DNA of 64,000 nucleotides, taken from positions 1 to 64,000 of the IMG/VR virus record IMGVR_UViG_3300028591_000169. One strand, 5' to 3'. The notes below the pieces were generated by a model. That model made no database searches. It saw only the letters and a list, made by a program, of their open reading frames with translations, and had not been told where the DNA came from. The position numbers were made by a program, and so were the translations under genes. Of this stretch, positions 1,818 to 49,371 are shown piece after piece. Numbering within the stretch: position 1 is the stretch's first letter; the number at the start of each line of letters is the position of its first letter. The stretch comes from a virus (lineage: Duplodnaviria > Caudoviricetes).

Positions 1818-1969
1818 AAAAAATATTTGAAGGAGAAGTTGTATCCAAAGGAGATGAAAAGTACATTTATGTTGAAAGTGAATTGGCGTGCTACACCCTT
1901 CCCTTTGAGGCAAAGGAAGGAGAAAAGGTTAGGATAACTTATGAATTGATACAAGATGGCAAAGACTAA
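1814..1969 (+). CDS. Small hypothetical protein (51 aa)
   Basis: ATGA overlap at 1814-1817; MKKIFEGEVV...KVRITYE. Confidence 0.6.
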   Translation: MKKIFEGEVVSKGDEKYIYVESELACYTLPFEAKEGEKVRITYELIQDGKD

Positions 1970-2138
1970 CTACCTTCTCTGCTCCGGCGAGGCTTGTCCC
2001 TTGCGAATGACCTGCCGGAGACATCAGGAATGGCTCAACAACGAGGATGACGAGGCAGACGAAATGGAACCAGCGTACAATTATAAGATTGGAAATTGTG
2101 AAAGATTCGACATCAATAACTACTATTACGGCGGTTGA
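1956..2138 (+). CDS. Small Cys-rich hypothetical protein (60 aa)
   Basis: CSGEACPLRMTCRRH...C pattern; overlaps the upstream gene. Confidence 0.6.
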   Translation: MAKTNYLLCSGEACPLRMTCRRHQEWLNNEDDEADEMEPAYNYKIGNCERFDINNYYYGG

Positions 2139-2298
2139 TGAACCGAAGGGATTCATTACATTCGGACCAAGAGATAGTTTTTATGCTTGTGTCCAAGTAT
2201 GTTATGTGCCTACCAATGAGCAGATTGCAAATATTCAAAAATATTTTGGGTGGGATTTTATTACTCCAGAAGAATTGAAACGGTACAATGAAGGCTGA
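2047..2298 (+). CDS. Small hypothetical protein (start uncertain)
   Basis: The C-terminal part (PTNEQIANIQKYFGWDF) looks coding and fills the gap between its neighbours. Confidence 0.45.
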   Translation: MTRQTKWNQRTIIRLEIVKDSTSITTITAVDEPKGFITFGPRDSFYACVQVCYVPTNEQIANIQKYFGWDFITPEELKRYNEG

Positions 2299-2746
2299 TT
2301 TGATTGAGAGATTGTCTTGGCAAGACATCAAGGAGATTGATGAAATTCTTTTTCAACTATGTAGTGATGACTTTTGCGATGAGGAAGAATATTATTCCAA
2401 AGTGATCACAAGGTTGAACAAGCAGAATAAAACACTGCCGGCTTGTAAGGATAGGTACAAAGAAATCCTTCCAATCGCTGAAAGTATTGTCGGTGAAAAA
2501 AACCGAAAGGAGCGAACATTTGAACTGACTGTTCTCCGATGTATGATTGCAAGCAGGTTGAAAGAAGAAGGATACACATTGACCAATATTGCAAAGGCAA
2601 TGGGTTATGATCATTCAACGATTATATTCTATTTCAAGAAAAAGGCAGACTTCTTTACTCTTCCGCTGATGTACGAAAGAGAAGTTAGGTGGTTCAAATT
2701 ATTCGAACAAGAATTAAATAAAAATACTGAACATGAGACCAACTGA
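2288..2746 (+). CDS. HTH protein resembling the DnaA C-terminal DNA-binding domain
   Basis: LRCMIASRLKEEGYTLTNIAKAMGYDHSTIIFY resembles the DnaA domain IV RDHSTV signature. Confidence 0.6.
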   Translation: MKADLIERLSWQDIKEIDEILFQLCSDDFCDEEEYYSKVITRLNKQNKTLPACKDRYKEILPIAESIVGEKNRKERTFELTVLRCMIASRLKEEGYTLTNIAKAMGYDHSTIIFYFKKKADFFTLPLMYEREVRWFKLFEQELNKNTEHETN

Positions 2747-2945
2747 AAGTACCGAAGGATCATTGTACTCCATAATGAGAAATATGGATATGAACACGAA
2801 ACTCGTTGTTCCGTATGAGCAATGGGCGATGGTAAGATCAATGGCTCATGGACTAAAAAAGGATTTTGGGGCCAAATTCAAGGTCCGACGAATGATGACA
2901 CCAAGGACAAAACTAAATTTCATTCTTGTAAAGAGAATTGAATAA
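2733..2945 (+). CDS. Small basic protein, possibly DNA-binding (70 aa)
   Basis: K/R-rich; converges on the integrase gene. Confidence 0.5.
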   Translation: MRPTESTEGSLYSIMRNMDMNTKLVVPYEQWAMVRSMAHGLKKDFGAKFKVRRMMTPRTKLNFILVKRIE

Positions 2946-2958
2946 TGTTCGTAATGTA

Positions 2959-4185
2959 TTAATTGCCATTAACATAATTGATAACTCTTCGATTAGCATC
3001 GTCGACAGCTTGCTGATTGAATTTGACATATATGAGGGTAGTCCTATTTCCCGAAGAATGCCCGAGCGCCTGTGAGATGACATCCAACGGGACACCCGCT
3101 TCATAGGCGAAGGTGGCCCAGCAATGGCGTGCGTAGTATGTGGAGATTCCCGGAATGACGGGCTTGACGGTTTTTATTAGTCGTGGTGTACCGAACAGGT
3201 CCTCGGGGTCCGGGACCATCTCCACCACTTCCTCGCCTATCATCTTCAGGTGGTCGTTCATTTCGTGGGCGAAACTTTTATAGTGTTTGCATCCATCCAT
3301 CGCCCTGAGGAGATAGTTCCTGCCCTTGTATCTTTTCAGGAGTTCCTCGGCTTCCGGTTCGATCCTGATCGAATACTTCTTGTGCGTCTTCTCGCGGATA
3401 TACTCGAACCTGCCGTTTATTATTTGTTTCTCAAGGCCAAGTAGCAGGTCCTTGGAGTTGATTCCGATGAGATAGAACATGAGGAGGAAGTAATCGCGGA
3501 ACATCGCGTTCCTTTCGGATGTCGGATAGTCGAGGAACTTTCTGAAGAGTTCCACCGATACGCTCCGTTTCCTTGTCGGTTCCTGCCTGATGGAGAAGTT
3601 CTGGAACGGATAGGAGGAGATCACGTTGGTGTGCAGTGCGTAGTTGCACACAGCCCGGAGACTCCGGAGATAGATTGCCCGACCATTCACCCCCTGAGTC
3701 TTTGATAGAAACTTTTCAAACTGATGCAACCATTTAAGGTTTATGTCTTCCATCTTCAATGTCTTACCTCCGAACGCAAGCACTTTCGAGAGAGTGGCAC
3801 GATAAATTTCCTTCGTCCCTTCCTTGATATCGGTCGCAAGATATTCCGAAAACAAATCTGAAACGAGATGAACTGGCTTAACGACTTTCTTTTCCGTTAT
3901 CGCTTGTTTGACCTGTGGCGCCGTCATTGAATCGAATCTATTGGAATCTATTGATAGATATGCAATAGATCTGTTAATGGAAGAAATCTTCTCAGTAAGC
4001 TTGGCGTTGATCGCGTCACAACCCACGACACGAATGACGTGACTTCCGTCCCATTCGTTCGGGGCTACACGAATTCCAGTAGGTATCGTTGCCGTAGTAC
4101 GGTTGTGGTATATAGTGATGACGATGCTCCCTTTCCCGTCCTTCGCCCTCCCGCGAAGATCCAGGTAAAATCTTGTCGTGGCCAT
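2959..4185 (-). CDS. int: Tyrosine recombinase / phage integrase, Bacteroidota type (408 aa)
   Basis: N-terminal arm-binding-like region (FYLDLR...ATIPTGIRV), SAM-like core, and catalytic region IGINSKDLL, REKT, YARHCWAT, QALGHS, TLIY. Start set at MATTRF (4185) downstream of a promoter box. Confidence 0.93.
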   Translation of the reverse strand: MATTRFYLDLRGRAKDGKGSIVITIYHNRTTATIPTGIRVAPNEWDGSHVIRVVGCDAINAKLTEKISSINRSIAYLSIDSNRFDSMTAPQVKQAITEKKVVKPVHLVSDLFSEYLATDIKEGTKEIYRATLSKVLAFGGKTLKMEDINLKWLHQFEKFLSKTQGVNGRAIYLRSLRAVCNYALHTNVISSYPFQNFSIRQEPTRKRSVSVELFRKFLDYPTSERNAMFRDYFLLMFYLIGINSKDLLLGLEKQIINGRFEYIREKTHKKYSIRIEPEAEELLKRYKGRNYLLRAMDGCKHYKSFAHEMNDHLKMIGEEVVEMVPDPEDLFGTPRLIKTVKPVIPGISTYYARHCWATFAYEAGVPLDVISQALGHSSGNRTTLIYVKFNQQAVDDANRRVINYVNGN

Positions 4186-4201
4186 ATTGGAATACTTTCC
4201 G

Positions 4202-4209
4202 CAAATATA
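4202..4209 (-). promoter_or_regulatory. Bacteroidota sigma-A -7 box (TATATTTG) upstream of the integrase
   Basis: Matches TAnnTTTG, 16 nt upstream of the ATG at 4185. Confidence 0.55.
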
Positions 4210-4217
4210 TAAATTTG

Positions 4218-4235
4218 TCTGCAAACAATTCTGCA
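4218..4235. repeat. Putative integrase arm-type sites, left pair (TCTGCAAA, ATTCTGCA)
   Basis: Same motif and orientation as the pair at 4435-4458, on the other side of the tRNA fragment. Confidence 0.5.
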
Positions 4236-4334
4236 TAGCGTCACATGAGCCTGGAACAGATGTACAAAAGAAAAAGTCTCGACAATTCAAGTAACAAGTT
4301 TGTTTCATTACTTGACTGTCAAGACTTTACGTTG

Positions 4335-4380
4335 TGGAGATAGTCGGATTCGAACCGGCGACCCCCTGCTTGCAAAGCAG
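4335..4380 (-). other. attP core: 3' half of tRNA-Ala(UGC), from anticodon arm to discriminator
   Basis: Minus strand reads CTGC-TTTGCAA-GCAG GGGGTC GCCGG-TTCGAAT-CCGAC TATCTCC A. No D arm or 5' acceptor strand lies upstream; the site is 150 nt from the int start. Confidence 0.85.
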
Positions 4381-4434
4381 TGGAGTTCTCCGCTTAATCA
4401 CATGACAGTCACATAAATACGAAACCGCAAAAAT

Positions 4435-4458
4435 CATTCTGCAAAACATTCTGCAAAA
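4435..4458. repeat. Tandem 12-bp direct repeat CATTCTGCAAAA x2, putative arm-type sites
   Basis: Exact tandem duplication about 55 nt from the att core. Confidence 0.6.
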
Positions 4459-4691
4459 TGTACTCGTTTTTAGAACAGCATAACGATGGTAGCTGGTGGT
4501 ACCATCCGGGATGCACTTACGAAACAGAAGGGAAAGCAAAACAGGGATTCAAAAAGATGTTTTGGTGGGATTTAGACAGACCGCACAAAATCATATCGCA
4601 TTCGATTCCTTTCCCTCAAGATATTTCTCGATGCACATTTGATATGGTGCATTTCAATTTTGCTGGTGGAAAATTTTTTACATTACAATAA
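4458..4691 (+). CDS. Hypothetical phage protein (77 aa)
   Basis: First ORF of the resumed plus-strand run. Confidence 0.55.
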   Translation: MYSFLEQHNDGSWWYHPGCTYETEGKAKQGFKKMFWWDLDRPHKIISHSIPFPQDISRCTFDMVHFNFAGGKFFTLQ

Positions 4692-4692
4692 A

Positions 4693-4872
4693 ATGAACGA
4701 CTTGATTTGGAAGAAGATTGTTCCCGGTAAGCAATATGATGAACAGATTCTGATGATCGATGTGACTCATCGCAATTATCCTAGAACTGGATTCGGTAAC
4801 CGCTGGATGGGAACAGCAACGCACTACATTCCTGTGAAATTGTTGGAGAACATCTTGGAATACGAGAAATGA
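4693..4872 (+). CDS. Hypothetical phage protein (59 aa)
   Basis: ATG 1 nt after the previous stop; ATGA overlap with the next gene. Confidence 0.55.
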   Translation: MNDLIWKKIVPGKQYDEQILMIDVTHRNYPRTGFGNRWMGTATHYIPVKLLENILEYEK

Positions 4873-5342
4873 ACTACGATCTGACAAACAAAGAGAACAG
4901 GAAACGTTTCATCAATCGATGCAATGCTCTCCTGAAGAATCAGCGGAACAATGTCTGTCTGATTGATGAGTCCAACAGAACTCTGAATCAGAACAGATAT
5001 ATCCATGTATTATGTAGGATACTTGCACAGGATGTCGGAGTTTCTGAGGAGTACGCCAAGCAGGTTTACTTCAAGGAACTGGCAAATCCGAATATCTTTA
5101 TCACCTGCACGAAGGATCCGATAACAAATGAGTTTATCAAGATTACTCGCAGTACCGCCGACCTCAACATCAACGAGATGAGAAAGGCAATTGACGGGTT
5201 TATCAGATGGGCCGCGGAAAACGGATATGTATTGCCTGAAGCTACGCTGAACGATGATGGTACGATGACATTCAATGATGACCAGAACAATGAAGCATTC
5301 CATCAGGCTGAGATTGAAACAAGTAAGGAGGAATGGATATAA
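4869..5342 (+). CDS. NinB-like recombination-associated protein
   Basis: RTLNQNRYIHVL...EYAKQVYFK...RSTADLNINEMRKAID matches the NinB pattern (R-S/T-x-x-QN ... STxxL). Confidence 0.7.
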   Translation: MNYDLTNKENRKRFINRCNALLKNQRNNVCLIDESNRTLNQNRYIHVLCRILAQDVGVSEEYAKQVYFKELANPNIFITCTKDPITNEFIKITRSTADLNINEMRKAIDGFIRWAAENGYVLPEATLNDDGTMTFNDDQNNEAFHQAEIETSKEEWI

Positions 5343-5488
5343 TGGATAATACATTGATTGGAATTGATGAGTTCGATGAATTGAGAGATAAGTTGGAACC
5401 CATCATTCTGCAATTCGCAGAAAGACATTTTCACGGTGTGTCGCTCAAGATTGAATTCGAATTTGGAACGGTGACGATAGAAGTATAA
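5342..5488 (+). CDS. Small hypothetical protein (48 aa, MDNTLIGIDEF...)
   Basis: TAATG overlap with the NinB-like stop; ends just before a terminator. Confidence 0.5.
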   Translation: MDNTLIGIDEFDELRDKLEPIILQFAERHFHGVSLKIEFEFGTVTIEV

Positions 5489-5489
5489 C

Positions 5490-5520
5490 AAAGGGGAGAT
5501 GCATCACTGCGTCTCCCTTT
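5490..5520. terminator. Probable (bidirectional) intrinsic terminator between convergent gene blocks
   Basis: AAAGGG(G)AGATGC-ATCACT-GCGTCTCCCTTT hairpin with A- and T-tracts. Confidence 0.6.
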
Positions 5521-5609
5521 CAACAAACTCTAAACACCAATTATGAACAATTCATTCGTAATAAAGATAGCGAATGGAATGTGTCTTTTGACGGATATAA
5601 GCGTTTCAC

Positions 5610-8600
5610 TTACAGGTCATAAAATTGCAGGCTATTCTGCGGATGAAGACCACGATAAATCGTTCGATGCATTGGAATAAGTGGAGAATCCCAGAACAAC
5701 TTATACGCCTTGCTATGCCCTTTATATCGTCCGGTTTGAAGAATCTTCGTATAATTCGAAGGTATCATCAACTGCGCCATATTCGTCACTCCTTCCCAAG
5801 TATTGACGCATGCAGCAGGAGATTTGAGGATATTGAACGCCTCTTGAATCATTTGCGGATTGATTATCATCTGAGATCCGATTTCGGATTCAAGGCGACG
5901 AGTCTGATAAAGAAGCTGATTGAACCACCAGGACTTCGCAAGATTATCATCATCGTCATCCGCTTTTTTCTTCACGTCTTTTAAGATTGCGAATGCAGCG
6001 CAGACACTTACAAACTGTCCAACTTCAACTGCGAAACGCATTAGGTTCGCTTGCTCCCTGGGATCAAGATTCTTATAGCTGGTAACAATATCAAACTGTC
6101 CACGCCTAAGGTCTTTGACCAGTTGTGAAAAGAATCTACCGGCAGTTGTATAGAACCCCTCCTCCCATTCTTCAACATCGAAGTTATAATTCAGAGAACT
6201 GTATCTTCTATTAAGCGACGGCTTGATCCACTTTCGGAACATCAAACCAATTCTACCCCACGCATAAGCCTGTGCAGCGCAACGGTCTTCATAATTGTAA
6301 ATACCGTTCATTCGCTGGTTGATGGATTTAGCTTTGTTTGTGAATTTCATAACATCAACATTATCGTCAAAGGCGGTTCCGTCGGCTTTTTTAATACCGG
6401 GCTTTGTCACAAGTCTGCTTACCCCATTCTTATCCGTAACAACTTCCTGTGAATCCCAGAGACTGATTGGATTATTATCCTTGTCTCTTAAACCATACGC
6501 TTCGCTAAGAGCAAGAACAGCACGATTTTGAATCCAAAGTTCGCCAGCGTTATTAATGACATATAACGAATTCGAATTGAGTAATCTTGCAAATCTCGAC
6601 TTGGCATACTCCTGGCTACGAACATCACTTTCAAAATCCTGCATGGTATTGAATTTCTCCATGAACAGCGCAAGCTTTGAATGCTTAACGGGCTGTCCGA
6701 CATCGCCAAGGAAATCAGGGAGTGCAGACCAGAAAATAGAATCTGCTTTCGCGAGGTTCTTTACGGAGAAAAACTGACCCGCGATAGACTCTATTCGATT
6801 CATTGCCGATGCCGTCATTACGTTGCTTATACCGGAAAGTATATTCAGCGCAAACTGATTGAGCGCTGTTACTTCGTTTGATAGATTTGCAAGCATTCCA
6901 ACATCCATTCCAAGTATTTCTCCTTCGTCCTTCATGTATCTGGAATAAACCTGGGAGCTGAACCAATCATTCATTCTTCTTACGATGTTGGTAGCCTCTC
7001 CGGATTTGGTCAGATCCGTCTCGACGGTAATGCCAAAAGCCTGAAGAACATTGACAAGCGGTTTTGTTCCGGCTCTTTGGAGAACGGGGCGTTCATTTAT
7101 TTTTTCACGCACAAGTTCGAGAAGACCAACGACATTGTTCATTGCGCTGAAATTGCAGGACATATTAGCATACATCAGCATGGACGAAGTAACATCCTCG
7201 GAGATATCGTCAAGACTTTCTCCGTCTTTCGAATTAACGAACATGATAGGAAGAATCTCGACCTGTTTACCGGTAAAGTCCATTAGGACGGTCTTCTTGA
7301 CACCTTCATCCTGACCCTCAATTTCTCCACGACCATCAGTTTCCGGGTTATCACTGCGACGTTTTACCTTATCACGAAGAGCCTCTTTGGTCTCACGAAT
7401 GACACCATTGATGGAATCCTGACCCTTCAAACGTTCAATGAAATCCTTTCTGACGCGGACAATATTCAACTCGGTTGTTGAACCCTTTGGGAGTTTGGCA
7501 TCAAGTTCGCGCTTGATGGACATGACTTCCTTGTAATAGTTCTTACGAGCTATATCAAGGCGTTCTGCCTGGTCTGTGGATATGTACTTTCCTGTCTTAT
7601 GCCCATTCGGGTCCCTGGCAAACATAAAGGAAGTGTCGGTTATTCCGCTTCGCTTTAATTTCAAATAAGCGGCATCAAGACGTTTCTTGTATTCAATGGT
7701 CTCGAGCCGTGCGGCACTTCTTGCCTTTTTTGCCGTTGCGTCAAGCATACGAAGCATCATGTCGCCAGACTCAGCCATAGAATCAAGCCATCTATCGAAT
7801 ACCGTGATATCCTTTTCTGCTTGTTCAAGAAGCTCTTCCGCAGTAATAATGTCACCTTTTTTCTTACCGTTCCAAGTTCCAAAAGGAATTTCTAAACCTT
7901 CACCGACAAACCGTTTTACAAAAGAAACCAGAATAGGATTCTTCAGTTGCTCATAAGCAGCTGTCAAGCTTCCAATCATATATGTCGCCTGATTCAGAAT
8001 ATCCTTACGCTCTTGGTTCGGCTTGATAACGCCGGCGAATTCCGCTCTTGCAATAGCGTCGATTGATATGCGATAAGATTCAATGAAGTCTTTGATATTC
8101 TTCAGCGATTTTGCCCGTTGTTCGAGAGGAAGGTTTCCATTATCGCGAAGTTCCATAATAACCGATTCGGCTTTTTCGAGCTGCGTAAGTGTAGCGTCTA
8201 CAAAGTCATAGATACCAAGTTCATATTCTTCATCCTGGAATCTGGCATAAAGCGAAGATGTAAGGCTTTTATCGAAAGTCTTATCATAATCAGTATCGCG
8301 AGCAGATAGAATCTTAAACCGACGAACATTCGTTTCAATGATATCGTGAAGAAGATCCTGCTGTTTGGCAATGCGACCGCGAAGATTATTGAATTCTGGC
8401 GTATCGGTTTCCTGATTGAACTCAATAGTGGTTTCTCCGGTCATTTCGTCTTCGAGTTGACTTGTTATCGGAGAGCGCTTCGCATCCCTGATATAAGAAG
8501 AAATCTCATCTTCTCCGATCTTGGAGATAATCTCATTAAACTGGTCCCTGATTCTGGATACAAGTCCGGAAATACTAGCAATCTCGGGGCTCGAGCCAGA

Positions 8601-9479
8601 ATCGTCGAGAACATAATCCGCAATAAGCTTACCAATTGCAGCTTCAATGACAGACGCTTCGTCATCACGAAAATCATCAGGCAGGCTCATGTATCCCTCT
8701 TCGCCAAGGATGCTTTCCGCCATACCTCTTTTAGACAAGGCGCTGCGAAGCCGATTCATCAGTGGCGTATCAAGTATAGTGGCAAACGTTATGATGGACA
8801 TTTCTTCCGGCATATAGACAAGGCCAGTCCTTCCATTAGCCTTACGTACCAATGCTTGAAGATTCTCTGCGATATAGACAGCTGCATCATATTCGTCAAT
8901 TCCGTTCTCCGCCATCTTATCCATTATGATATCGATGACATCTTCTTTGATGCCGATGCGCTTCATGGCATTATCAAGACGAGAGACAAGAATCTGTTTC
9001 CTGGAAATGCGCGAAGCTTTCTCCCGGTTCTCCGGGTTATTTTCAACGAGTTTAACCTGAACGATATCATTACCTTCATTATCCTCATATAATTCGGTCA
9101 ACGCAACAAACTCGTCGTGAAGAGAGGAATTATATTTCATGGCGCGTTTCTCAGCATCAAGAACATTTTCTCTCGTAGCGGGAACCGGTTGATATGCATC
9201 AATTTCTTTAGAAGCAAAAGAGCGACGAACTCTTACGCCAAGAAGCGGAGCAAGTTCTGGAATAGACTTCAATGAACGAAACGTATATTCGCCGTTCTCG
9301 TCACGAGAAAGCTCTTCTTCATGCTCATCAATAAAGTCTGCGCTTCTTACGCGAAGATAGATTTCGCGAGCATTCTTATAACCGACAGCCTTTTTGAGGT
9401 CAGCGAACAACTGACTATTCACGAGTTCGCCGGTCTTCCTCGATCTTACTTGCGGATAGATTGTACAGTAGGCACCCAT
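5610..9479 (-). CDS. Large virion cargo (ejected) protein of the crAss RNAP cluster (1289 aa)
   Basis: Directly downstream of the virion RNAP; crAss-like N-terminus (CTIYPQVRS...SQLFADL); largely helical. Confidence 0.75.
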   Translation of the reverse strand: MGAYCTIYPQVRSRKTGELVNSQLFADLKKAVGYKNAREIYLRVRSADFIDEHEEELSRDENGEYTFRSLKSIPELAPLLGVRVRRSFASKEIDAYQPVPATRENVLDAEKRAMKYNSSLHDEFVALTELYEDNEGNDIVQVKLVENNPENREKASRISRKQILVSRLDNAMKRIGIKEDVIDIIMDKMAENGIDEYDAAVYIAENLQALVRKANGRTGLVYMPEEMSIITFATILDTPLMNRLRSALSKRGMAESILGEEGYMSLPDDFRDDEASVIEAAIGKLIADYVLDDSGSSPEIASISGLVSRIRDQFNEIISKIGEDEISSYIRDAKRSPITSQLEDEMTGETTIEFNQETDTPEFNNLRGRIAKQQDLLHDIIETNVRRFKILSARDTDYDKTFDKSLTSSLYARFQDEEYELGIYDFVDATLTQLEKAESVIMELRDNGNLPLEQRAKSLKNIKDFIESYRISIDAIARAEFAGVIKPNQERKDILNQATYMIGSLTAAYEQLKNPILVSFVKRFVGEGLEIPFGTWNGKKKGDIITAEELLEQAEKDITVFDRWLDSMAESGDMMLRMLDATAKKARSAARLETIEYKKRLDAAYLKLKRSGITDTSFMFARDPNGHKTGKYISTDQAERLDIARKNYYKEVMSIKRELDAKLPKGSTTELNIVRVRKDFIERLKGQDSINGVIRETKEALRDKVKRRSDNPETDGRGEIEGQDEGVKKTVLMDFTGKQVEILPIMFVNSKDGESLDDISEDVTSSMLMYANMSCNFSAMNNVVGLLELVREKINERPVLQRAGTKPLVNVLQAFGITVETDLTKSGEATNIVRRMNDWFSSQVYSRYMKDEGEILGMDVGMLANLSNEVTALNQFALNILSGISNVMTASAMNRIESIAGQFFSVKNLAKADSIFWSALPDFLGDVGQPVKHSKLALFMEKFNTMQDFESDVRSQEYAKSRFARLLNSNSLYVINNAGELWIQNRAVLALSEAYGLRDKDNNPISLWDSQEVVTDKNGVSRLVTKPGIKKADGTAFDDNVDVMKFTNKAKSINQRMNGIYNYEDRCAAQAYAWGRIGLMFRKWIKPSLNRRYSSLNYNFDVEEWEEGFYTTAGRFFSQLVKDLRRGQFDIVTSYKNLDPREQANLMRFAVEVGQFVSVCAAFAILKDVKKKADDDDDNLAKSWWFNQLLYQTRRLESEIGSQMIINPQMIQEAFNILKSPAACVNTWEGVTNMAQLMIPSNYTKILQTGRYKGHSKAYKLFWDSPLIPMHRTIYRGLHPQNSLQFYDL

Positions 9480-9482: not shown

Positions 9483-12400
9483 TTATTTACAGATAGGTTG
9501 GTTATTATCATCAAGCCAAGTGATAAGGCCATTCATATTATATGGCACTTTGCTGGTAATGTTAACTTCCAGATTAAGACCACTTGCAACGGCGAGGGCT
9601 TGCTTCCCGTTTGGAGTTTTCGCCTTAAGCAAATCGTGATGTTGACTTTCGCCCTTCAGGGTAAACGAAAGATTTTCGGTAATCCTTACGCCGTCCTTCG
9701 TATATAGTTTCGCCTTTGGCCACGCATCGACGCTGGGGCTATTGGCATCGAACGGTATAACAACGAAGAATCTTTCTTCAGTAACCTTGTCTCCGTCGGA
9801 ATTATAGATATCTATTCCATACTTGGATGAAAGCACAGGAACATCAATGACATGGATATTACTTCTGACAATAGTTCCATTAACTATTTTCAGCGGACGG
9901 ATTTCATCGGGATTACCGCCAAGTATATCATTTGTATCGACAAGGAAATCACCGTCGCGTTCGCCTTCATTATCACCTTCTTCATTAACATCGGTATCGG
10001 CAATCTTTTCGACCATTTCTCGAAGATTTTCAATCTGCTTGACGAGCTCCTTATACAGTTTCGGATTATCGCTTTCAGTAATATCACCAAAAATGCCTTC
10101 GGAAGGAAGGACAACGCGCTTGTATTCGCCACTCTCGAGCGCCTTGATAATATCATTGATCTCATCGTTGATAACTTTCCTGAACTGGGCGACAGTCATA
10201 CCATTCATTCCGACGGTAGAAATAGGGAATGCATTCACGAGACCACGAATAGAATCGGGACCGGAATCAGGATATGAAAGGAAACGAAGTCCGCCATATT
10301 TCTTGGCATATTTCGTGGCGAATGCAACCCTGTTCATTCCGGATTTTCTTTCTGGATTATCAGGGAAGAGATAAATCGTCTTCTTGTCTTTCGCTGCAAT
10401 AGAGCGTGTCCAGGGATTCATTGCGGTAAGGAACGGACCATCTTCCTTGTCGTAGATGCGACCATCCTTCTTTGCCTTTGTGGAGTCAAGGTTGGAAAGG
10501 AATGCATCCTTATCGGAGACGGCCTTACCTTTATCACCCTGAACCTTATAGTCGGAAGTAGGATGAATCTCGAGCGAATAGCCAAGTTTAATTGCGGCTC
10601 TTGCGGATGCAAGCGCAACGCCGGGCTGAGCCGTCGATACGACTTTCGAAACAAAGATACCTCTGTCTTTCAGGGCTTTATATACACGAAGCACATAACC
10701 ATCAAGGTCATCCTGTGTCGTATACTTGGACAGTGTATTCATTCTGGAACCAGTAAGGTTCAGAACAATTGACTTATTGGTGCGACGGCTAAGCTTCCTT
10801 GCAATTTCGTTTGCAATATCATAAGCGTTGGTAGGATCATAACGAACGGAAGCCAACCTTGTCTCGGGGGCAACCTGTTTCACCATTTTACCAAGTTGGC
10901 CAGACTCATTATCCGTTATACAGATCGTGTAAGTTCCAAACTCCTGAGCGCATGCAGCTTCTTCAGCCGCAATGGTTCCATTTTGGGATACAGAGTCTAA
11001 AATCTTGAATTTGTCTTTGGACTTATTTCCACCTTTCTTCTCCTTCTCTACCTGCTGCTTAGACTTGGCAGTTTCCTTCGACTTCCCAGAAGACTTGTTT
11101 GATTTAAGCCAAGAAGCTCGGGCATCCTTAAACTTCTTGCTCTTGGCAATGGACGGATATTCGCTTAATGCTTCCTTGTATCCTGCGTCAGTAAAGAAAT
11201 ACGTCTTGAAACCCTTGTAAGTCTCGGTATCATCAGGTGCTTCGTTTGGCTCTTCGGAAGAATTACCGGAAGTTGAAGACTTCCTGCGAGCCTCATCATA
11301 ATTCTTTTTCTCCTGATTTGATTTCTTCTTTCCCTTCTTGCCGCGAATGGCGGCTGCCACCATATCCTGGTCAAAAGCGCTAAGCATAGACAGCCCGCTT
11401 TCTTTTGCGGAGTATTCAACAGACTTATCTTTCCAACCAAGCGGAGTGGTCCTTGCGTAAGTAGACACGCCGTTGACATCATCTTCGGCTACCTTTATAT
11501 AATAGTAATATTCAATACCATCCTTGGTTTTGTTCGTAATCAAGAAAGCGTTTCTCGGAGCATCGGATTCGGGATCAGGGAAATACCACTGCATGGCATC
11601 CTGATGGGCTTCATCCATTTTGCTATAATGCTTTATCTTCAGGCTGTCGGCTGCGACACCATTAACAATCCAGTTGTCGGGCCTGCGATTAGCAGGCGGA
11701 ACGGTCTCGCAAAAATGATAGTCATAAAGATTATTGCGAACGAATTGCTGCTCAAATCTTGAGCTATCGATAACCCTCGGATTCGCTTGCATATCGTCCA
11801 GCATCTCGGCATAACCAGAGAAAAGAAGACGCGCTTCAGCGGGGGCGAGATGGGCAAACGTTCCATTTCCGAATCTGAACCCATTACGGAAATAGCAATA
11901 CTTAAACAGGTCGAGGGCCAGTTCGCGAAGCTCCATGTTAGGATTTCCATTCTCGTCTTTCGCATAGAACAACTGCTGCCACACAGCAGATATTTCGTCT
12001 CGAACTTCGGGAAGCATTGTCCCATCATAATCAAGCGAGATAAACGGGTCCTCATCCGACTCAAGCGCAGAGTAAAGCCTCAACCTGCGGAACAGAAGAG
12101 AATTGGAAATACTCTCGTAATTTGATACAATCTCCGCCGCTTCTTCCGGGAAGATATTCAGATAGTAATTACGGGATTCCTCAAAGGACATTCCGTCCTT
12201 GCACATACAGTCATAAGAAGACTCGATATAATTATACAGCGCGAACAGGACATTCTTAACGTTCGTGACGGTTGCCCTGCCACCATAGTATTTCTTGATA
12301 ATATCCTTGAGTTGCTTTCTGAAATTCGGATCGCCAATTCCCGGATAATACTGTTCAAGTTCACGGAATGCGCCGACAACGCCATAAGTTATATACGCCT

Positions 12401-15400
12401 GGGCGAGAGGGTTCTTCGCGCCAAGGACCTCATCCAGCGAAGCGTCTTGTTCATAGCTATACTGAACGACCTGTCTCCAGTTTTCGAAAGTAGGATCGTT
12501 GTTTTCCGACTCCTCGAATAACTCGTAGTTAAGAAGACGGACAAGATTATTTTCGATTGGTCCATGTGGTCTCGTTCCGCCAGAATCGCCACGGGCAAGC
12601 GAGGAAAGCATACGAAGCTTTTCACCAATTTCTTCGAGATAAAGGAAAACGCCAAGAGCGGTCTGGCAATATTCCTGAAGTTCAGGAGTCATGTCGTTGA
12701 ACTTATCACCAGCCATTATCGCGGCCTTCATTTGCTCAAGACCACCAGGAAGTTCCTGAAGAAGTTCAATCTGCTCTCTCTTTTCGTAATAATCACCGAA
12801 ATCACCGGTATCAGTATAGTGACGAATGGAAGGAATGTTCAGGAATAGCGCGACTTCTTCCATCGTATAGCCAAGCTGAAGCATCAGCGAGACAACAGGG
12901 GCAGTGCGGAGATTGATATTCATCACCGCAAGCATAGGATCTTTCGAGTTATCAGCGGCAGCACCAACGGATGTACCTATATAACGCGAAATATATTGCA
13001 GCGCACTCTTGGGGTTCTTGGCGATATCAGCATTCGCAGCAGCCAATTCAGAAAGTTCAACCGTAACATCGTGAAGGCTTTCCAGCTGGCGCCCATTTAT
13101 AATCGCCCCAGTCCCGGGAACTAATCCAACATCCGTATGCTGAAGTATTGCCTGCATTGCCTCTGCGTTCGCAAAGACGGAAATCATCTGTTTACCATCA
13201 TTGTTCCTGGTTTCCTGGGCAATTCGTGATGCGATATCGGCGGGGCCATCATAATCTGCATATCTTCCCTTCGGAGTCAATTTCTCAATCTCGTTCTTGA
13301 TTTTCTTGAACGGGCCCGTATCACCAGCGGCAAGAGACATGGTAGAAACAGCTCTACCGGTAAGCATGCCGAACATTACATTAATGAGCGCATTGTCAAT
13401 AGCACCATTGGATTGCTTTCGGATATCCTTACTGGGGTCAAACTCGACATATTTAAGCAAGGCGCCACCGGGTCGGAGATATCTGTGCTTATTTATCTCT
13501 TTGTATTCATAAAACGGCATCGGCTTTCCTTCCGGAGCATTGCTCCTGCGATATTTATTTTCGAAATACGGCTTATCCCTCTCCTCGTGATAGAATTTCT
13601 TGAAGTCATAATCCGCAAGCTCAGTACCAGCGGCTTCGGCTTCCTTCATGAAATTCTTGAACGCCCCGTGTATGGCTGCGAAGTCATACCATTTATCGCA
13701 GTATTCCTTATAATCCTGATAAGCTTTATCCTCCCAGTTGTCAATCATTTCCTGGACCTCAAATGTCGGGAAGATAGTCGGGACCTTATCATTATCAAAG
13801 TCAGAGTCCTGCAAGAGAACGCTATCGATAGCAGTCACGATCGTGTCGCCAAGAATAGGAGGAAGGAATCCAACGACCTTTAGCGGAAGAACGAAGTTTT
13901 TAAACTGCGTGGGAATACGGACGCCTATTGCATACATAAGACGCGGAGACTCCTTGGAAACTTTTTCAAAATCAAGGATGCCGTTTTCGTCAGTACACTT
14001 GTCAATGATGGGTTTTGACCATGCAGGAAGGAGGCAGTCGATAGATTTATATCTGATTGGCCTACCATTCTCGTCACGTTCAAATTCAATCTTCAGGTCA
14101 TTTGCGACACCAAAAGCAGACATTGATACAAGCGACTTGCCCGGAGCAGTTACCCTTGATACGGCATTTTTCACGATACTGTTCAAGAACTCGGAAGACA
14201 TGTTCAGCGTGGCAAGGTCGCACAGGGGAATGACGAAGTTTCCATATTCATCAAGAGAAAATGCACGTTCAAGATATACGGAATTACGGGACGAATTGCG
14301 ACATGCTTGCTGAAGTTTCTCAGAAAGCTTTTTCTTGTCGGCGAACGTTCCGGTAACATCCTCGTATTCACGAAGGATTTTCTCTGTCATCAATCGATTA
14401 TACAATGCGATGATTTCATAACGAGTTAAATCTCCGATTCCATAAACAGGATACAGGGCTTTTTCATAAGTCATATTTCCGTCTGCATCACGAACCGGGA
14501 ATGTGTCCAGAAGGTCTGCCGCGATAAGCTTCTGCAACTGGACACCGATTGGAATTTTGTCATCAAAACCGGTATCGGGATTCTGAGCGACGATGCCCCA
14601 GAGACTGAGAGGTATCTGATGGACAAGGCTCATGCCGCCGGTAGCCTCACGATACCGTTCCATCTCTTCCCGAATCCTATCTATAATCTCTTCTTTGGAA
14701 GCCGACTCAACATCAATGTCGCCGAAGTTCACGGCGCCATTCTGACCAGCCTTGACTCCGGAAGTGAAGATAATCGCATCAACGCGCTCTTCGTCCATAA
14801 ATTCAGAAAAAGCGATAAGCGCATTTGACTTTCCAAGTCTCGTCGCTGAAGCCTGAACAAGAGCCGCCGTCATTATCTGCTCGGATAATTTATGTTGGAC
14901 AGGCATCAAACGCACTTCGTCACTACCTTCATCAATGGGGATAAGACCACTAAGGAAAGGTTTCAGAGCGGTACGCACAATGTAGCTGTCTCCGGGTTGC
15001 TGCTTTCCGGAGGCAATCCGATCAAGTGCACGATCGAGATCATCGCCTTTCTTCATCTCGCCCATGGCATACATGATTGCCTTCATCGAGTCAAAAGAAC
15101 GAATCGCCTGACCATCGGTATATTTTATCTTCTTAGGGACGAGCGCTCCGGTTTCCTTGTCTTTATCGTAAAGGAACGAGTCATGTGTCTCTTGGTCTAT
15201 GATTCCATTTTCAAGCGCATCGTCATAAAGCATCTTCAGGTCATCCCAAGAAGGCGAGGGAATCTGCGGATCATCAATGTATATGACGTGCTCAACGATA
15301 TCATCCTCTTCGAGCTCTTTGTCTTCTGCAATACCATGGCGCTCGCGATACCAGTTGAGAAAATCCTCGTTATAGATATCGAGATGGTCAAGCGGAACAA

Positions 15401-18400
15401 TGGACTGTTTACTCCGCTTCTGTTCATTATCTGAACCCTTATTATAGGCGGAATAATATGCGGCATCACCATTAAGGATTTCGTTGATGCCCATTTGAAA
15501 AACGCTCTGGTCAACGATAAACCCATTAATCCTGGCCTCGCCTACCTCGTTTTTCCGCATCTCGTAAAAAGCCGGATTCTCTTCCTTGAACTTCTCGACC
15601 ATGGATTTCTTGACAACAGCAACAAGATGGTCAAGCATATCATCAAGGTCCGCAAACTGACTCGTCACTTCTCCAGTAACGTACATTTCCAGAAGCTTCT
15701 GAACGGAATAATCGTCAAGATGCGAAGGGTCAAGATGGGAAACAATATCGGAATCGTTTAGAATAGGAAACGTACAGAACCTATTCTTGTTGTCCCGGAA
15801 TGTTTTAGGAAGATGCGCATCGGAAGAATTGTCCGTCATGCGCTCGAGCTCCTTCAGTATCTGTTCCCTTATTGCGTCATCTCTGATATCGTCACCAACG
15901 TCGGTGAAACGTATATATGCCATTCTTCCGGAATCGGATGGAAGCGGTATCGGATACCATGTGCCCTGGGCATTAAGATATTCAACCTTGTCGGGGTCCT
16001 GATGATACATGGACCAGAGCATATTCAGACGGTCTGTCTGTGTAAGGTCCTTCTGTTCCGTCTTGTCGCGCTTACCCGTATCCACGTTCAGGATAGTGAC
16101 ATAGCTTATACCACTTCCGGTTATTCCGGACTCTCCATACGCAAGCGCCTCGAGAACATGATTCCTATAATGGATTTTACCATCTTCTGTTTTGTAGGAG
16201 TATCTCGGGTCCTTACCAAACTTCTTTTCGATATACTCGCGTGTGGTAAGATTGACGCGTTTACCGGCTTTCTTGGATTTCGATACGGAAAATTTCTTTC
16301 CCTGAAGCCCGACGATCAGATCGTCAAGAACGGACGGAAGGACATAGGAATAACGGACCTTTCCGTTTTCCCGCTTACTTGCTTCAACTGCGCCCCTGTC
16401 GGCAAGCGTAAGAACCTTGGCAATCTTCGTATAGCTCGACATTGCCCGGTTATCGGAAGACAGATGTTCGTATTCATTAAGAAGGTCGCCGGTTGTCTCG
16501 TAACCATTACCCTTCATAAGTTCAAGGGCATGATGGGCTTCAGCCCAAAGGACGCCGAGGTTATTGTTCTGCCTAATGACACCACGCCGAACGTCGCGGG
16601 CTGCAATTACGCGTATATCAGAAGGAGTAATGACAAACCCCATAGCCGTAAGAACGGCATGCAGGTCATTAATCAAATCAGGGTTTTCCTTCAGCAGTTC
16701 CCGGACTTCGGAAGGACCAGCTGTAAACAGTTTCGAAACGGGATTATTATACCTGTCGAATTCCACATATTTCTCAAGGACAGAGATGGCTTTGTCGATG
16801 TTTCTCTCGTCAAGCTCTCTGTCGTTATATATGGACATACCCCTGTTTGATGGAATACCGGAAGCAATCTGCCTCTTTGCAGAAGTCATTATACTGTCAA
16901 CCGTATTCCCGGAATTGATGATATTCAGGCGGTTCTTCGAAAAGTCCCTCGGATTATCCTCATCCTTTTTCAGGATGCCAAGTTGCTGCGTATACCTACG
17001 GATAGAACGGAATAGCTGGGACTTCAGTTTACTGTCCTGGGAAATTTGCTGGCGAATATAGGATATCCACGGATAATCCTTCTCCATGTATTCCAGCATC
17101 AGGTCCATCTCCCTGCTGGTAGTTACGCCCTGCATCTCCTGGATAAGGGTGTTTATGACCTGCATTACAGGAACGGTATATTCAGTTCCGAATCTCGTCC
17201 TGCGTTTTCCAAGCGGACACCTGTAGAGCATATGGCGGACCTGCGCAGACATTTTATCCCAGTTACTTGTTGTATCATACTCGTACATCCAGGTTTCCTT
17301 GTACTGGTTTTCAATGCCACTGACGTCTCCTTCCTCTTCGCCTTCACTGTTCTCCTCGTCATTCTTGCGGTCGTTCTTCCTGTCAACAGTAAGGTCGAGA
17401 TGGATATCTATATGAACATGTTCAGATGTCTCAAGTTCGCGACACGCCTCCTCTCGAAGAACCGGGAAATTATCGACAACCTTCTTTACCTGGTCTCGAT
17501 ACCATGCAAGATTCTTCTTGATGAAATTTTTCGAGGTGTCGGGGAAGGCAGCGCGTAATGCATCAATGAACCCGGCGTCGCTCGTATCGGCAAGAGATGC
17601 AAGGTCTGCAAACTTCTGCTGTATTTCTTCGAAGATAGCCTGCGGGCCTATCTCCCTTAACGCGGACATCCTGTCGTAGGAATCGAGCTTTTCCTGGATC
17701 TCGCCGAGTTCACGCTCATAAGATGCAAGCGCCGTCTCCCAAGAAACACTCGGAGTCGTGCTGACATCCATGCCAAACTGGAGGCCAAGTTTGTTTACGA
17801 GACCAACAATCTCTTTCAGGACAGCGCTGCTTGGATTATATGCCCTGGCAAATGCCGCCCTGTTATACTGGACAACATCAGCGACTGTATTGATTTTATT
17901 ATCCGTAATGAACTTCGTTGCCCTCACGGAAAGTTCAAGGTCGGACAATTCTGTATTCAGAAGACGCTGCTTTGCATCCTGCGTTTCGACAACACCGGCA
18001 GATTCAAGATATTTACTCTTATCCTTCTCCTCGATAGCTTTGTTTAATTCAGCCCTTCGCTCTGCAAGTTCATTCAGCTTACCCTCGTGTTCTTTGGAAA
18101 GAATTCTATCGAACCAGTCAACGATTTCAGAAATACGCTCCATCCGCTCGGTAGAACTGAATTCCTCCGCCGCTTTTTTACGATAAACCTCGGTTATGCC
18201 ATCATCAGAGATACCGTAATTATCACGCAACACACGTTTTGCCTGCTGCAACTCGTAGTTCATGATGTCCACGTTCTTGTTCCCAGAACGCCTGTTTTTC
18301 TTTTCGTAATCCATAATTGCCTGGAGACGCTCTCTGGCAGATAATCCAAATGCATCTTCAGCAACGGCATCACTTGCATAAACCAAGTCTACGGCAAGCG

Positions 18401-18779
18401 CCTTGAATAGTCTGAAGTCTTCAGCGGTAGCCCCACTTGTAGTCAAGTCGATTGTGTGACTTCTGCGATTAATTGCAATGTTAATTCCGAGACGGTTGCC
18501 AAGATCGACAAGGGATTTCGGTAATTCCTTACCATCAAGTAGTTGTTCAAAATCCACCTTCGGCAAGGCGATGTGCATATTATCAGCACCACGGATTTCA
18601 GAATAAAGATTACGAAGCGTATCAATATCGGGAACGGATTCGAGATCGACATTTGGATTACCATTAGCCATCTCACGCTCCTGCCAGATACCTACCATAT
18701 TCTTGACACTGGCTAAAGTTTCGCTCTTGAGGTCGGAGTGTAACTTGATAATAGCCGGATGAACAATAAGACAAGGCAT
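9483..18779 (-). CDS. Virion-packaged DNA-dependent RNA polymerase, crAss type (3098 aa)
   Basis: GVRIPTQ...LKVVGFLP...DSDFDNDK; the catalytic DFDxD motif is at 13788-13802. Size and position are as in crAss-like phages. Confidence 0.92.
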   Translation of the reverse strand: MPCLIVHPAIIKLHSDLKSETLASVKNMVGIWQEREMANGNPNVDLESVPDIDTLRNLYSEIRGADNMHIALPKVDFEQLLDGKELPKSLVDLGNRLGINIAINRRSHTIDLTTSGATAEDFRLFKALAVDLVYASDAVAEDAFGLSARERLQAIMDYEKKNRRSGNKNVDIMNYELQQAKRVLRDNYGISDDGITEVYRKKAAEEFSSTERMERISEIVDWFDRILSKEHEGKLNELAERRAELNKAIEEKDKSKYLESAGVVETQDAKQRLLNTELSDLELSVRATKFITDNKINTVADVVQYNRAAFARAYNPSSAVLKEIVGLVNKLGLQFGMDVSTTPSVSWETALASYERELGEIQEKLDSYDRMSALREIGPQAIFEEIQQKFADLASLADTSDAGFIDALRAAFPDTSKNFIKKNLAWYRDQVKKVVDNFPVLREEACRELETSEHVHIDIHLDLTVDRKNDRKNDEENSEGEEEGDVSGIENQYKETWMYEYDTTSNWDKMSAQVRHMLYRCPLGKRRTRFGTEYTVPVMQVINTLIQEMQGVTTSREMDLMLEYMEKDYPWISYIRQQISQDSKLKSQLFRSIRRYTQQLGILKKDEDNPRDFSKNRLNIINSGNTVDSIMTSAKRQIASGIPSNRGMSIYNDRELDERNIDKAISVLEKYVEFDRYNNPVSKLFTAGPSEVRELLKENPDLINDLHAVLTAMGFVITPSDIRVIAARDVRRGVIRQNNNLGVLWAEAHHALELMKGNGYETTGDLLNEYEHLSSDNRAMSSYTKIAKVLTLADRGAVEASKRENGKVRYSYVLPSVLDDLIVGLQGKKFSVSKSKKAGKRVNLTTREYIEKKFGKDPRYSYKTEDGKIHYRNHVLEALAYGESGITGSGISYVTILNVDTGKRDKTEQKDLTQTDRLNMLWSMYHQDPDKVEYLNAQGTWYPIPLPSDSGRMAYIRFTDVGDDIRDDAIREQILKELERMTDNSSDAHLPKTFRDNKNRFCTFPILNDSDIVSHLDPSHLDDYSVQKLLEMYVTGEVTSQFADLDDMLDHLVAVVKKSMVEKFKEENPAFYEMRKNEVGEARINGFIVDQSVFQMGINEILNGDAAYYSAYNKGSDNEQKRSKQSIVPLDHLDIYNEDFLNWYRERHGIAEDKELEEDDIVEHVIYIDDPQIPSPSWDDLKMLYDDALENGIIDQETHDSFLYDKDKETGALVPKKIKYTDGQAIRSFDSMKAIMYAMGEMKKGDDLDRALDRIASGKQQPGDSYIVRTALKPFLSGLIPIDEGSDEVRLMPVQHKLSEQIMTAALVQASATRLGKSNALIAFSEFMDEERVDAIIFTSGVKAGQNGAVNFGDIDVESASKEEIIDRIREEMERYREATGGMSLVHQIPLSLWGIVAQNPDTGFDDKIPIGVQLQKLIAADLLDTFPVRDADGNMTYEKALYPVYGIGDLTRYEIIALYNRLMTEKILREYEDVTGTFADKKKLSEKLQQACRNSSRNSVYLERAFSLDEYGNFVIPLCDLATLNMSSEFLNSIVKNAVSRVTAPGKSLVSMSAFGVANDLKIEFERDENGRPIRYKSIDCLLPAWSKPIIDKCTDENGILDFEKVSKESPRLMYAIGVRIPTQFKNFVLPLKVVGFLPPILGDTIVTAIDSVLLQDSDFDNDKVPTIFPTFEVQEMIDNWEDKAYQDYKEYCDKWYDFAAIHGAFKNFMKEAEAAGTELADYDFKKFYHEERDKPYFENKYRRSNAPEGKPMPFYEYKEINKHRYLRPGGALLKYVEFDPSKDIRKQSNGAIDNALINVMFGMLTGRAVSTMSLAAGDTGPFKKIKNEIEKLTPKGRYADYDGPADIASRIAQETRNNDGKQMISVFANAEAMQAILQHTDVGLVPGTGAIINGRQLESLHDVTVELSELAAANADIAKNPKSALQYISRYIGTSVGAAADNSKDPMLAVMNINLRTAPVVSLMLQLGYTMEEVALFLNIPSIRHYTDTGDFGDYYEKREQIELLQELPGGLEQMKAAIMAGDKFNDMTPELQEYCQTALGVFLYLEEIGEKLRMLSSLARGDSGGTRPHGPIENNLVRLLNYELFEESENNDPTFENWRQVVQYSYEQDASLDEVLGAKNPLAQAYITYGVVGAFRELEQYYPGIGDPNFRKQLKDIIKKYYGGRATVTNVKNVLFALYNYIESSYDCMCKDGMSFEESRNYYLNIFPEEAAEIVSNYESISNSLLFRRLRLYSALESDEDPFISLDYDGTMLPEVRDEISAVWQQLFYAKDENGNPNMELRELALDLFKYCYFRNGFRFGNGTFAHLAPAEARLLFSGYAEMLDDMQANPRVIDSSRFEQQFVRNNLYDYHFCETVPPANRRPDNWIVNGVAADSLKIKHYSKMDEAHQDAMQWYFPDPESDAPRNAFLITNKTKDGIEYYYYIKVAEDDVNGVSTYARTTPLGWKDKSVEYSAKESGLSMLSAFDQDMVAAAIRGKKGKKKSNQEKKNYDEARRKSSTSGNSSEEPNEAPDDTETYKGFKTYFFTDAGYKEALSEYPSIAKSKKFKDARASWLKSNKSSGKSKETAKSKQQVEKEKKGGNKSKDKFKILDSVSQNGTIAAEEAACAQEFGTYTICITDNESGQLGKMVKQVAPETRLASVRYDPTNAYDIANEIARKLSRRTNKSIVLNLTGSRMNTLSKYTTQDDLDGYVLRVYKALKDRGIFVSKVVSTAQPGVALASARAAIKLGYSLEIHPTSDYKVQGDKGKAVSDKDAFLSNLDSTKAKKDGRIYDKEDGPFLTAMNPWTRSIAAKDKKTIYLFPDNPERKSGMNRVAFATKYAKKYGGLRFLSYPDSGPDSIRGLVNAFPISTVGMNGMTVAQFRKVINDEINDIIKALESGEYKRVVLPSEGIFGDITESDNPKLYKELVKQIENLREMVEKIADTDVNEEGDNEGERDGDFLVDTNDILGGNPDEIRPLKIVNGTIVRSNIHVIDVPVLSSKYGIDIYNSDGDKVTEERFFVVIPFDANSPSVDAWPKAKLYTKDGVRITENLSFTLKGESQHHDLLKAKTPNGKQALAVASGLNLEVNITSKVPYNMNGLITWLDDNNQPICK

Positions 18780-46435: not shown

Positions 46436-46485
46436 AATGCTATAAAGTTTGGTTAAACAAAAGTTTTTCTAATGGCCTCCGGCTT

Positions 46486-47628: not shown

Positions 47629-47638
47629 TTGGTTTGCA

Positions 47639-47646
47639 CAAATTTA
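47639..47646 (-). promoter_or_regulatory. Host -7 box TAAATTTG upstream of the scaffold-MCP operon
   Basis: Exact TAnnTTTG in the intergenic gap. Confidence 0.5.
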
Positions 47647-47661
47647 TCGAAAGGCGATAAT

Positions 47662-47698
47662 GAAATTACCGCCATAAGCATTTCGCTTGGCGGTAATT
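47662..47698 (-). terminator. Strong hairpin, probable terminator after the nuclease gene
   Basis: AATTACCGCC...GGCGGTAATT 10-bp inverted repeat. Confidence 0.5.
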
Positions 47699-49361: not shown

Positions 49362-49371
49362 GTTATTCAAA

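Follow-up and report, generated by a model that had tools for sequence, protein, structure and literature searches.

A probable integration module at a tRNA-Ala attachment site in a Kehishuvirus-related clade of crAss-like phages

Background

crAss-like phages are the best-known abundant phages of the gut, and their persistence is mostly explained by a carrier state, phase variation or a phage-plasmid lifestyle. Here we present the analysis of a 64,000-base stretch of viral DNA (the window, bases 1-64000 of the 79,413-base linear IMG/VR virus record IMGVR_UViG_3300028591_000169, CheckV completeness 82%) in which a tyrosine integrase gene lies next to the 3′ part of a tRNA-Ala gene, among the genes of a rumen-type crAss-like phage. 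Very probably the gene and the site make up the integration module of this phage, which would be temperate or at least able to integrate. Integration competence is well supported, and stable, inducible lysogeny less so. That this particular phage integrates, where its strands would cross and how lysogeny would be maintained we infer.

The locus offers a concrete and testable case of classical integration in crAss-like phages: a defined phage attachment site (attP), a defined bacterial target (attB), predicted arm sites and a related prophage with both of its junctions (attL and attR). It also cautions against taking these phages to be strictly virulent, for instance in phage work or in their use as markers.

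Results

An integrase gene beside the 3′ part of a tRNA-Ala gene

The module consists of the following features, all on the minus strand.

2959-4185, minus strand: tyrosine integrase gene, 408 amino acids (coding 2962-4185, stop codon 2959-2961), recognised by Pfam, PHROG and the N-terminus of its homologues; N-terminal arm-binding, SAM-like core-binding and catalytic domains
4202-4225, minus strand: probable integrase promoter of Bacteroidota type, TTTG at 4222-4225 and TATATTTG at 4202-4209, 17 nucleotides upstream of the ATG
4216-4235, minus strand: P′ arm, tandem TGCAGAAT (4228-4235) and degenerate TGCAGACA (4216-4223), candidate arm-type sites
4257-4331, minus strand: hairpin spacer just 3′ of the tRNA end, CTTGAC-T-GTCAAG at 4311-4323 and a CAAGTAAC/GTTACTTG stem followed by a T run
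4334-4380, minus strand: attP core, 3′ part of tRNA-Ala(UGC), an exact match to metagenomic tRNA-Ala genes
4381-4433, minus strand: P-arm spacer with a conserved block of direct ATGTGA repeats, defined by comparison with relatives
4436-4455, minus strand: P arm, two direct TGCAGAAT repeats (4436-4443 and 4448-4455), candidate arm-type sites

Beginning at position 28 of the anticodon stem, the core takes in the T arm and the acceptor strand and ends one base past A73. By ARAGORN the window has no whole tRNA, and neither ARAGORN nor Rfam calls the half, which is partial; only a 13.9-bit match to the tmRNA clan appeared. By blastn the region 4330-4380 matches tRNA-Ala genes, including tRNA-Ala genes of phages, which agrees with an earlier reading of this DNA from its letters alone (the sequence-only reading) that had placed the 3′ half of a tRNA here. 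A degenerate pattern requiring part of the D arm together with the phage-borne 3′ half retrieved 79 loci from public metagenomes, 65 of which have a tRNA-Ala(UGC) whose T arm is the unusual one of the window (GCCGG / CCGAC). In 39 of these 65 the identity to the window, read from 4380 to 4334, extends over 47-49 nucleotides free of mismatches; the remaining 26 carry an allele with A28-T42, the same as the attP allele of the relative L074. Relatives L071, L072 and L073 have attP copies with a third kind of T stem (AGGGG / CCCCT), which likewise occurs in the real tRNA-Ala genes L216 and L228. Thus the attP alleles differ by paired changes at opposing stem positions and each copies a real tRNA-Ala gene, as is expected if the fragment regularly joins a working tRNA. 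In more distant relatives this position is taken by half of a tRNA-Val (L075) or of a tRNA-Pro(UGG) (L076). The tRNA-Val half of L075 (L075:2625-3000) is inverted with respect to the integrase gene, unlike that of all other relatives examined.

By these comparisons the core is a genuine attP with an existing attB. It lies between phage genes, small open reading frames (ORFs) at 142-2945 on one side and a NinB homologue at 4869-5342 on the other, as would an attP that has not recombined, and the sequence-only reading holds on this point too. Besides this record, only three in IMG/VR carry this attP.

The integrase itself appears complete. The open frame on the minus strand covers 2959-4308; we place the start at the ATG at 4185, not at 4308, because the conserved N-terminus MATT[RK]FYLD, common to all homologues (more than 300 exist), maps there. 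Pfam matches in the ORF are Arm-DNA-bind_5 (28.2 bits, above the cut-off), Phage_int_SAM_5 and, slightly below its cut-off, Phage_integrase, and PHROG 1 'integrase' matches across 300 residues (E 9e-26). An alignment of 44 homologues (55-94% identity) leaves R264, K266, T267, R353, H354, H376 and Y386 invariant, with R264 and K266 in a REKT box, and the tyrosine recombinase set R...K...HxxR...H/W...Y is present in order. The PHROG match and the five catalytic residues invariant among the 44 homologues confirm the complete integrase with ordered catalytic residues that had been read from the letters. Similarity to solved recombinases is limited to box II, which aligns with archaeal XerA 4a8e (E 1e-4).

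The carrier is a crAss-like phage

Outside the module, the window holds a crAss-type block of virion genes.

44903-60217, minus strand: structural and packaging block (PHROGs 11589, 6547 and 6681)
44903-46435, minus strand: major capsid protein, MCP (PHROG 11589, E 7e-65)
55451-57895, minus strand: portal (PHROG 6547, E 2e-131)
57965-60217, minus strand: large terminase subunit, TerL (PHROG 6681, E 6e-96)

The best named TerL matches are crAss001 and Kehishuvirus, at 58% identity. A 2249-amino-acid ORF at 18859-25608 matches genes of Kehishuvirus and crAssBcn phages that are annotated as RNA polymerase subunits (28-31% identity, E 8e-70) and, on this similarity, is a homologue of such a subunit. 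Judged by best-hit identities, on which its placement rests, the molecule is a bona fide crAss-like phage of a Kehishuvirus-related clade. All three proteins that the sequence-only reading had put on the same molecule as the integrase, a virion RNA polymerase (here a subunit homologue), a crAss MCP and a portal, were matched, as was TerL. Beyond the window end lie a 1993-amino-acid protein with BspA-type leucine-rich repeats (L070:6220-12201, record 70220-76201) and a 313-amino-acid collagen-repeat protein (L070:12803-13744, record 76803-77744), both likely host-recognition proteins.

The module sits at the same place in complete relatives

Three relatives in IMG/VR are complete, with direct terminal repeats and CheckV values of 100%: G437 (98,613 bases), G438 (99,880 bases) and G439 (94,278 bases). 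Together with G440 and G542 they all carry this integrase (55-90% identity) and a crAss TerL (59-95%), and in the three complete genomes the integrase and attP are found at the same place. G437 is collinear with the present record at 89-94% nucleotide identity, window positions 1953-5579 corresponding to G437 4614-8198, and the part that is absent from our incomplete record is the replication module. Independent assemblies of 96.6-96.9 kb from ENA show the same synteny. The sequence-only reading had named a chimeric assembly at this point as what would undo it; this is excluded, because three relatives complete to their terminal repeats bear the module at the same place.

For the most part, TerL and integrase have diverged in step (95/90, 86/81, 80/57 and 77/55% identity, respectively). 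G439 / L074 has an integrase at 71% and the same tRNA-Ala target, yet a TerL at only 59%, and G542 and G440 have TerL at 77-80%, integrases at 55-57% and a different tRNA target. This discordance suggests that the integrase and attP may be exchanged as a cassette between crAss-like phages.

A related crAss-like prophage with both junctions

A scan of species-representative genome contigs with the single protein found no close relative of the integrase. A profile scan of species-representative genomes found 53 loci with integrase homologues in Bacteroidales genomes, 34 of which were scanned for tRNAs. At 25 of these 34 loci the homologue (31-57% identity) is preceded on its own strand by a whole tRNA (Val, Leu, Asp, Arg, Met, Ser, Pro, Tyr or Glu), whose end lies 160-320 nucleotides upstream. 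This is the geometry of the window with the tRNA made whole, and it upholds the view that the order of tRNA 3′ half and integrase gene is the one that restores a host tRNA. Among these elements, 35 genomes with integrases of 24-40% identity were considered as carriers of crAss-like prophages and rejected: none of the 35 has a crAss MCP, and they hold other elements.

The closest homologue lies in a metagenome-assembled genome (MAG) of an uncultured Bacteroidales, G001, and its element is crAss-like. Contig C5 of this MAG reads from the bacterial genes for PhoH, a Mur ligase and alpha-2-macroglobulin to tRNA-Val(UAC), the integrase (57% identity), DNA polymerase A and other phage genes, and continues with TerL (71%) and MCP (73%) to the contig end. 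Contig C19 carries the portal (70%), homologues of the window ORFs 5610-9479 and 9483-18779, and a NinB homologue (C19:943-1407), which adjoins attR just as its counterpart in the window adjoins attP. Next to it, the 3′ part of tRNA-Val recurs without a mismatch over 52 nucleotides, and after this comes a terminator hairpin that related bacteria also have behind their tRNA-Val gene; past the tRNA and the terminator, synteny of the attB flanks with relatives could not be demonstrated. G001 holds exactly two copies of the tRNA-Val core, and by this anatomy they are the attL/attR pair of a crAss-like prophage at tRNA-Val. The junctions probably reflect real reads, because the 52-nucleotide repeat is shorter than the final k-mers of usual assemblers.

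In G001, TerL abuts a homologue of window 47729-48112 (C5:23188-25797, compared with window 47729-60217), and the portal is on the other contig beside a homologue of window 5610-9479 (C19:6332-12372); therefore either the gene order is unlike that of the window or the MAG contigs are rearranged.

The target lies at the end of a 16S rRNA unit without a linked 23S rRNA gene

The host gene would contribute the following part to the restored tRNA.

5′ half of the host tRNA-Ala: GGGGGTATAGCTCAG... end

At all eight attB loci checked (L177, L180, L171, L179, L192, L232, L234 and L185), the 3′ end of the 16S rRNA gene is followed by tRNA-Ile, tRNA-Ala, a terminator hairpin and protein genes; L243 and L244 show the same pattern. 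No 23S rRNA gene follows within up to 13 kb at the eight loci, and the target is therefore the last gene of a 16S-Ile-Ala unit unlinked from 23S. Such unlinked units seem to be a property of these rumen Bacteroidales. The attB contigs encode proteins of Gram-negative type, and one of these contigs has a conserved ATPase with 59-62% identity to its homologues in G001 and the genome G042, versus 46-51% in 39 other Bacteroidales genomes. From these comparisons the host is probably an uncultured, small-genome Bacteroidales lineage near the carrier of the related prophage.

Five loci (L202, L214, L223, L167 and L222) have a tRNA-Ala of the same allele without the usual terminator and with other direct repeats downstream, for example TTACGCACCA twice, or TTTACGCAGAA / TTTACGCATAA. 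They are probably junctions of other integrative elements that share the attB; with the window protein as query, no similar integrase was detected at them.

Candidate arm sites and promoter

Three of the five copies of TGCAGAAT in the 64-kb window sit within 230 nucleotides around the core. A pair of repeats flanks each side of the core in every relative examined, despite diverged surrounding DNA, and the pairs are retained also where the attP is a tRNA-Val (L075) or tRNA-Pro (L076) half. We regard the TGCAGAAT pairs as candidate arm-binding sites of the integrase, which would give the attP a POP′ anatomy of the lambda type.

The promoter consensus of Bacteroidota is TTTG / TAnnTTTG. Going by it, TTTG...TATATTTG would act as the promoter of the integrase gene; its elements are kept in relatives, and the P′ arm pair overlaps it. 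A promoter box for the integrase gene had been claimed, and TATATTTG is indeed there at 4202-4209 on the minus strand. The hairpins at 4257-4331 are likely a terminator for the restored tRNA, and host tRNA-Ala genes have a hairpin of their own at the equivalent position. The ATGTGA block of the P-arm spacer is kept in the window and in L072, L073, L002 and L235, and not in L074 or L071; it is possibly a site for an accessory protein.

Proposed mechanism

In the mechanism we propose, the N-terminal arm domain of a heterobivalent integrase (2962-4185, minus strand) would bind the TGCAGAAT arm repeats on both sides of the core, while its core-binding and catalytic domains would bind the 47-nucleotide tRNA-Ala core. 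Recombination would then join the circularised phage genome to the host tRNA-Ala(UGC) gene at the stretch that is identical in both; in an uncultured rumen Bacteroidales, this gene closes a 16S-tRNA-Ile-tRNA-Ala unit. The phage-borne 3′ half would replace that of the host, leaving the tRNA intact at attL directly upstream of the integrase gene, and the displaced host 3′ half would come to lie at attR beside the NinB operon.

We give about even chances to a wider proposal: that a whole clade of rumen crAss-like phages is truly temperate; that its cassette of integrase and attP is mobile, can be retargeted (Ala, Val or Pro), tracks host alleles and has moved between phages with 59% TerL identity; and that its tRNA-Ala version inserts at the end of the 23S-unlinked 16S-Ile-Ala unit. 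If true, this unit is also highly transcribed and offers the tRNA-Ala cassette one site per rRNA operon.

Neighbouring genes

The integrase gene is antisense to its neighbours.

2288-2746, plus strand: 152-amino-acid phage helix-turn-helix (HTH) protein near the integrase gene, with weak, sub-cut-off matches to HTH_38, TetR_N and HTH_3
2733-2945, plus strand: ORF of 70 amino acids abutting the 3′ end of the integrase gene on the opposite strand
4458-5342, plus strand: rightward phage operon beginning at the P-arm edge; its last gene (4869-5342) encodes a NinB/Orf recombination mediator

The 152-amino-acid protein groups with viral HTH_38 / DnaA-C-like clusters in a protein atlas and is, from these matches, a candidate regulator only. 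The 70-amino-acid ORF matches no family and is found at the same place in L002, L006, L235 and L236; it is a candidate directionality factor or regulator. The ORFs neighbouring the integrase gene matched no informative family. The relative G437 has a DnaB-like helicase with an intein (Hint and LAGLIDADG homing endonuclease domains; G437:84548-86809, L242:4548-6809), followed by a free-standing LAGLIDADG gene.

Discussion

Several results weigh against reading the module as that of a temperate phage. On the protein side, PF00589 (Phage_integrase) reaches 25.7 bits where the cut-off is 27.1, with a match confined to residues 392-432 of the long ORF, and in box II the first His of HxxR is replaced by Tyr (Y350). 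Since every family member has this tyrosine, among them copies that are demonstrably integrated and the enzyme of BS-TP2, an isolated temperate phage of Bacteroides, it characterises the family and is no defect. No repressor, S24 peptidase or excisionase was recognised beyond weak HTH matches, and HTH_3, S24 and HTH_17 gave nothing above the cut-off in this record and four relatives, though divergent proteins could escape such a search.

On the side of the target, core patterns of 44, 46 and 31 nucleotides are absent from the 401, 81 and 36 (together 518) Bacteroidales genomes sampled with a pattern search that had been validated on G001. With one mismatch and beside tRNA-Ile, the core occurs only in G452 and G454, relatives of G001 and G042. 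Searches of species genomes, JGI metagenome contigs and IMG/VR turned up neither an attL nor an attR of the tRNA-Ala group; this integrase lies downstream of tRNA-Ala at none of the 79 metagenome loci, and the one locus that holds the integrase (L190) has a partial tRNA and is attP-like. Whole tRNA-Ala genes of these alleles are missing from IMG/VR, and the crAss-size relatives are all in free form. The integrated example itself comes from a MAG, in two separate contigs and with a gene order unlike that of the window. Its attR is flanked by a 163-nucleotide direct repeat, 95% identical (G001:C19:554-716 and 1649-1811, L068), of which one copy lies in what should be host DNA and the other within the prophage; the repeat may be the remnant of an earlier insertion or a small repeat element.

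Short contigs with 81-91%-identical integrases are attP forms or are broken at or near the core. Three Logan contigs (k=31, three different runs), L006, L235 and that of P0010, end within or just past the tRNA core upstream of the integrase gene. Such ends are expected if the core k-mers have a second context in the sample, be it the host tRNA-Ala or junctions, and a contig break at the core shows only that its k-mers recur there.

The sequence-only reading had gone from an integrase and attP on a crAss molecule to true lysogeny. Its integration module is supported; for the lysogeny itself, no tRNA-Ala-group insertion, repressor or excisionase was found. Prophage copies, the lack of which it had counted against itself, exist as the related crAss-like prophage with attL and attR at tRNA-Val in G001, and none was found for the tRNA-Ala group.

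The strongest rival explanation, which we consider unlikely, takes the module for a conserved leftover or a rarely used system in a phage that is lytic, carrier-state or plasmid-like, so that integration would be negligible in nature. The recovery of all crAss-size relatives as free genomes fits it, as do the missing attL/attR of the tRNA-Ala group and the unrecognised repressor and excisionase. A leftover would not account for catalytic residues that are invariant down to 55% protein identity, nor for cores that follow the alleles of host tRNAs and have changed from one tRNA species to another with stem pairing and arm repeats preserved, which implies ongoing use of the attP; the G001 prophage with both junctions also speaks against it. 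Far less probable is a recombinase that acts on the phage genome itself, in multimer resolution or the maintenance of an episomal prophage, as Cre/lox does in P1. The prototypic crAssphage has been proposed to be a phage-plasmid (PMC10983915) and no integrated copy of the present species was found, but such a role gives no reason for the 47-nucleotide identity to the 3′ part of a host tRNA or for the allele tracking, an arm-binding domain with arm repeats is typical of integrases, and homologues are located at tRNA junctions. An assembly chimera, or a small foreign integrative element hitch-hiking in one contig, is scarcely credible: in its favour are the antisense orientation of the gene and a linear, incomplete record, but collinear placement in G437, G438 and G439 and the independent ENA assemblies refute it, there is a single tRNA fragment with no flanking pair of att sites, and TerL and integrase mostly diverge in parallel. 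We favour the integration module of a temperate or integration-competent phage.

Integrases or lysogeny modules in crAss-like phages are not new as such, and the sequence-only reading overrated the novelty of an integrase-bearing member: such phages are already noted in PMC7511551, PMC9980608, PMC8776839 and PMC13503771. Passages of PMC7511551 credit Yutin et al. with integrases or lysogeny modules in some crAss-like phages, passages of PMC9980608 cite Yutin 2021 for integrases in a larger crAss-like subset, and the main text of Yutin 2021 does not mention integrases. A temperate crAss-like phage is attributed to Fujimoto 2020 in a passage of PMC8776839. A 2026 catalogue (PMC13503771) found modules of integrase, excisionase and repressor enriched in Intestiviridae and the Zeta group and rare in Steigviridae, and a study of the epsilon group (PMC11054128) found repressors and no integrase. 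Our claim is like that of these earlier in-silico reports, namely that some crAss-like phages have lysogeny genes; unlike ours, the portions available of the PMC texts cited here give no anatomy of attP, attB, attL or attR. The contribution of the present locus is the fully resolved anatomy of an integrase and attP in a Kehishuvirus-related clade, attP alleles that track host tRNA alleles together with retargeting, the attB at the end of an unlinked 16S operon, and a hint of cassette exchange in G439.

Comparison with known systems

The integrases of lambda, P4 and the P22 type are heterobivalent tyrosine integrases with a POP′ attP and tRNA genes as targets, and our proposed mechanism is the classical one for such enzymes. 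Compared from general knowledge and not by sequence, the present module is like them in its arm-binding, core-binding and catalytic domains, in arm repeats that flank the core, in an integrase gene adjoining attP, and in a core that is the 3′ part of a tRNA, so that the gene is restored. It is unlike them in the Tyr in place of the first His of box II and in that no Xis or repressor is recognised.

Closer by sequence are the integrases of the temperate Bacteroides phages BS-TP2 and Bacuni_F1/F2/F4 and of elements integrated in Bacteroidales, which belong to the same family at 35-40% full-length identity and share the three Pfam domains, Y350 and the position just downstream of tRNA genes. Their carriers are phages or islands of about 30-60 kb without a crAss MCP (0 of 35 genomes), whereas the present module belongs to a crAss-like phage of about 98 kb.

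The closest cultured relatives by virion genes are crAss001/Kehishuvirus and crAssBcn (Steigviridae), with TerL at 58% and the RNA polymerase subunit homologue at 28-31%. MCP and portal families match, and the genomes are of like size, about 98-100 kb. crAss001 was reported without lysogeny genes (PMC7511551, PMC8375218); unlike it, the clade described here has an integrase with its attP.

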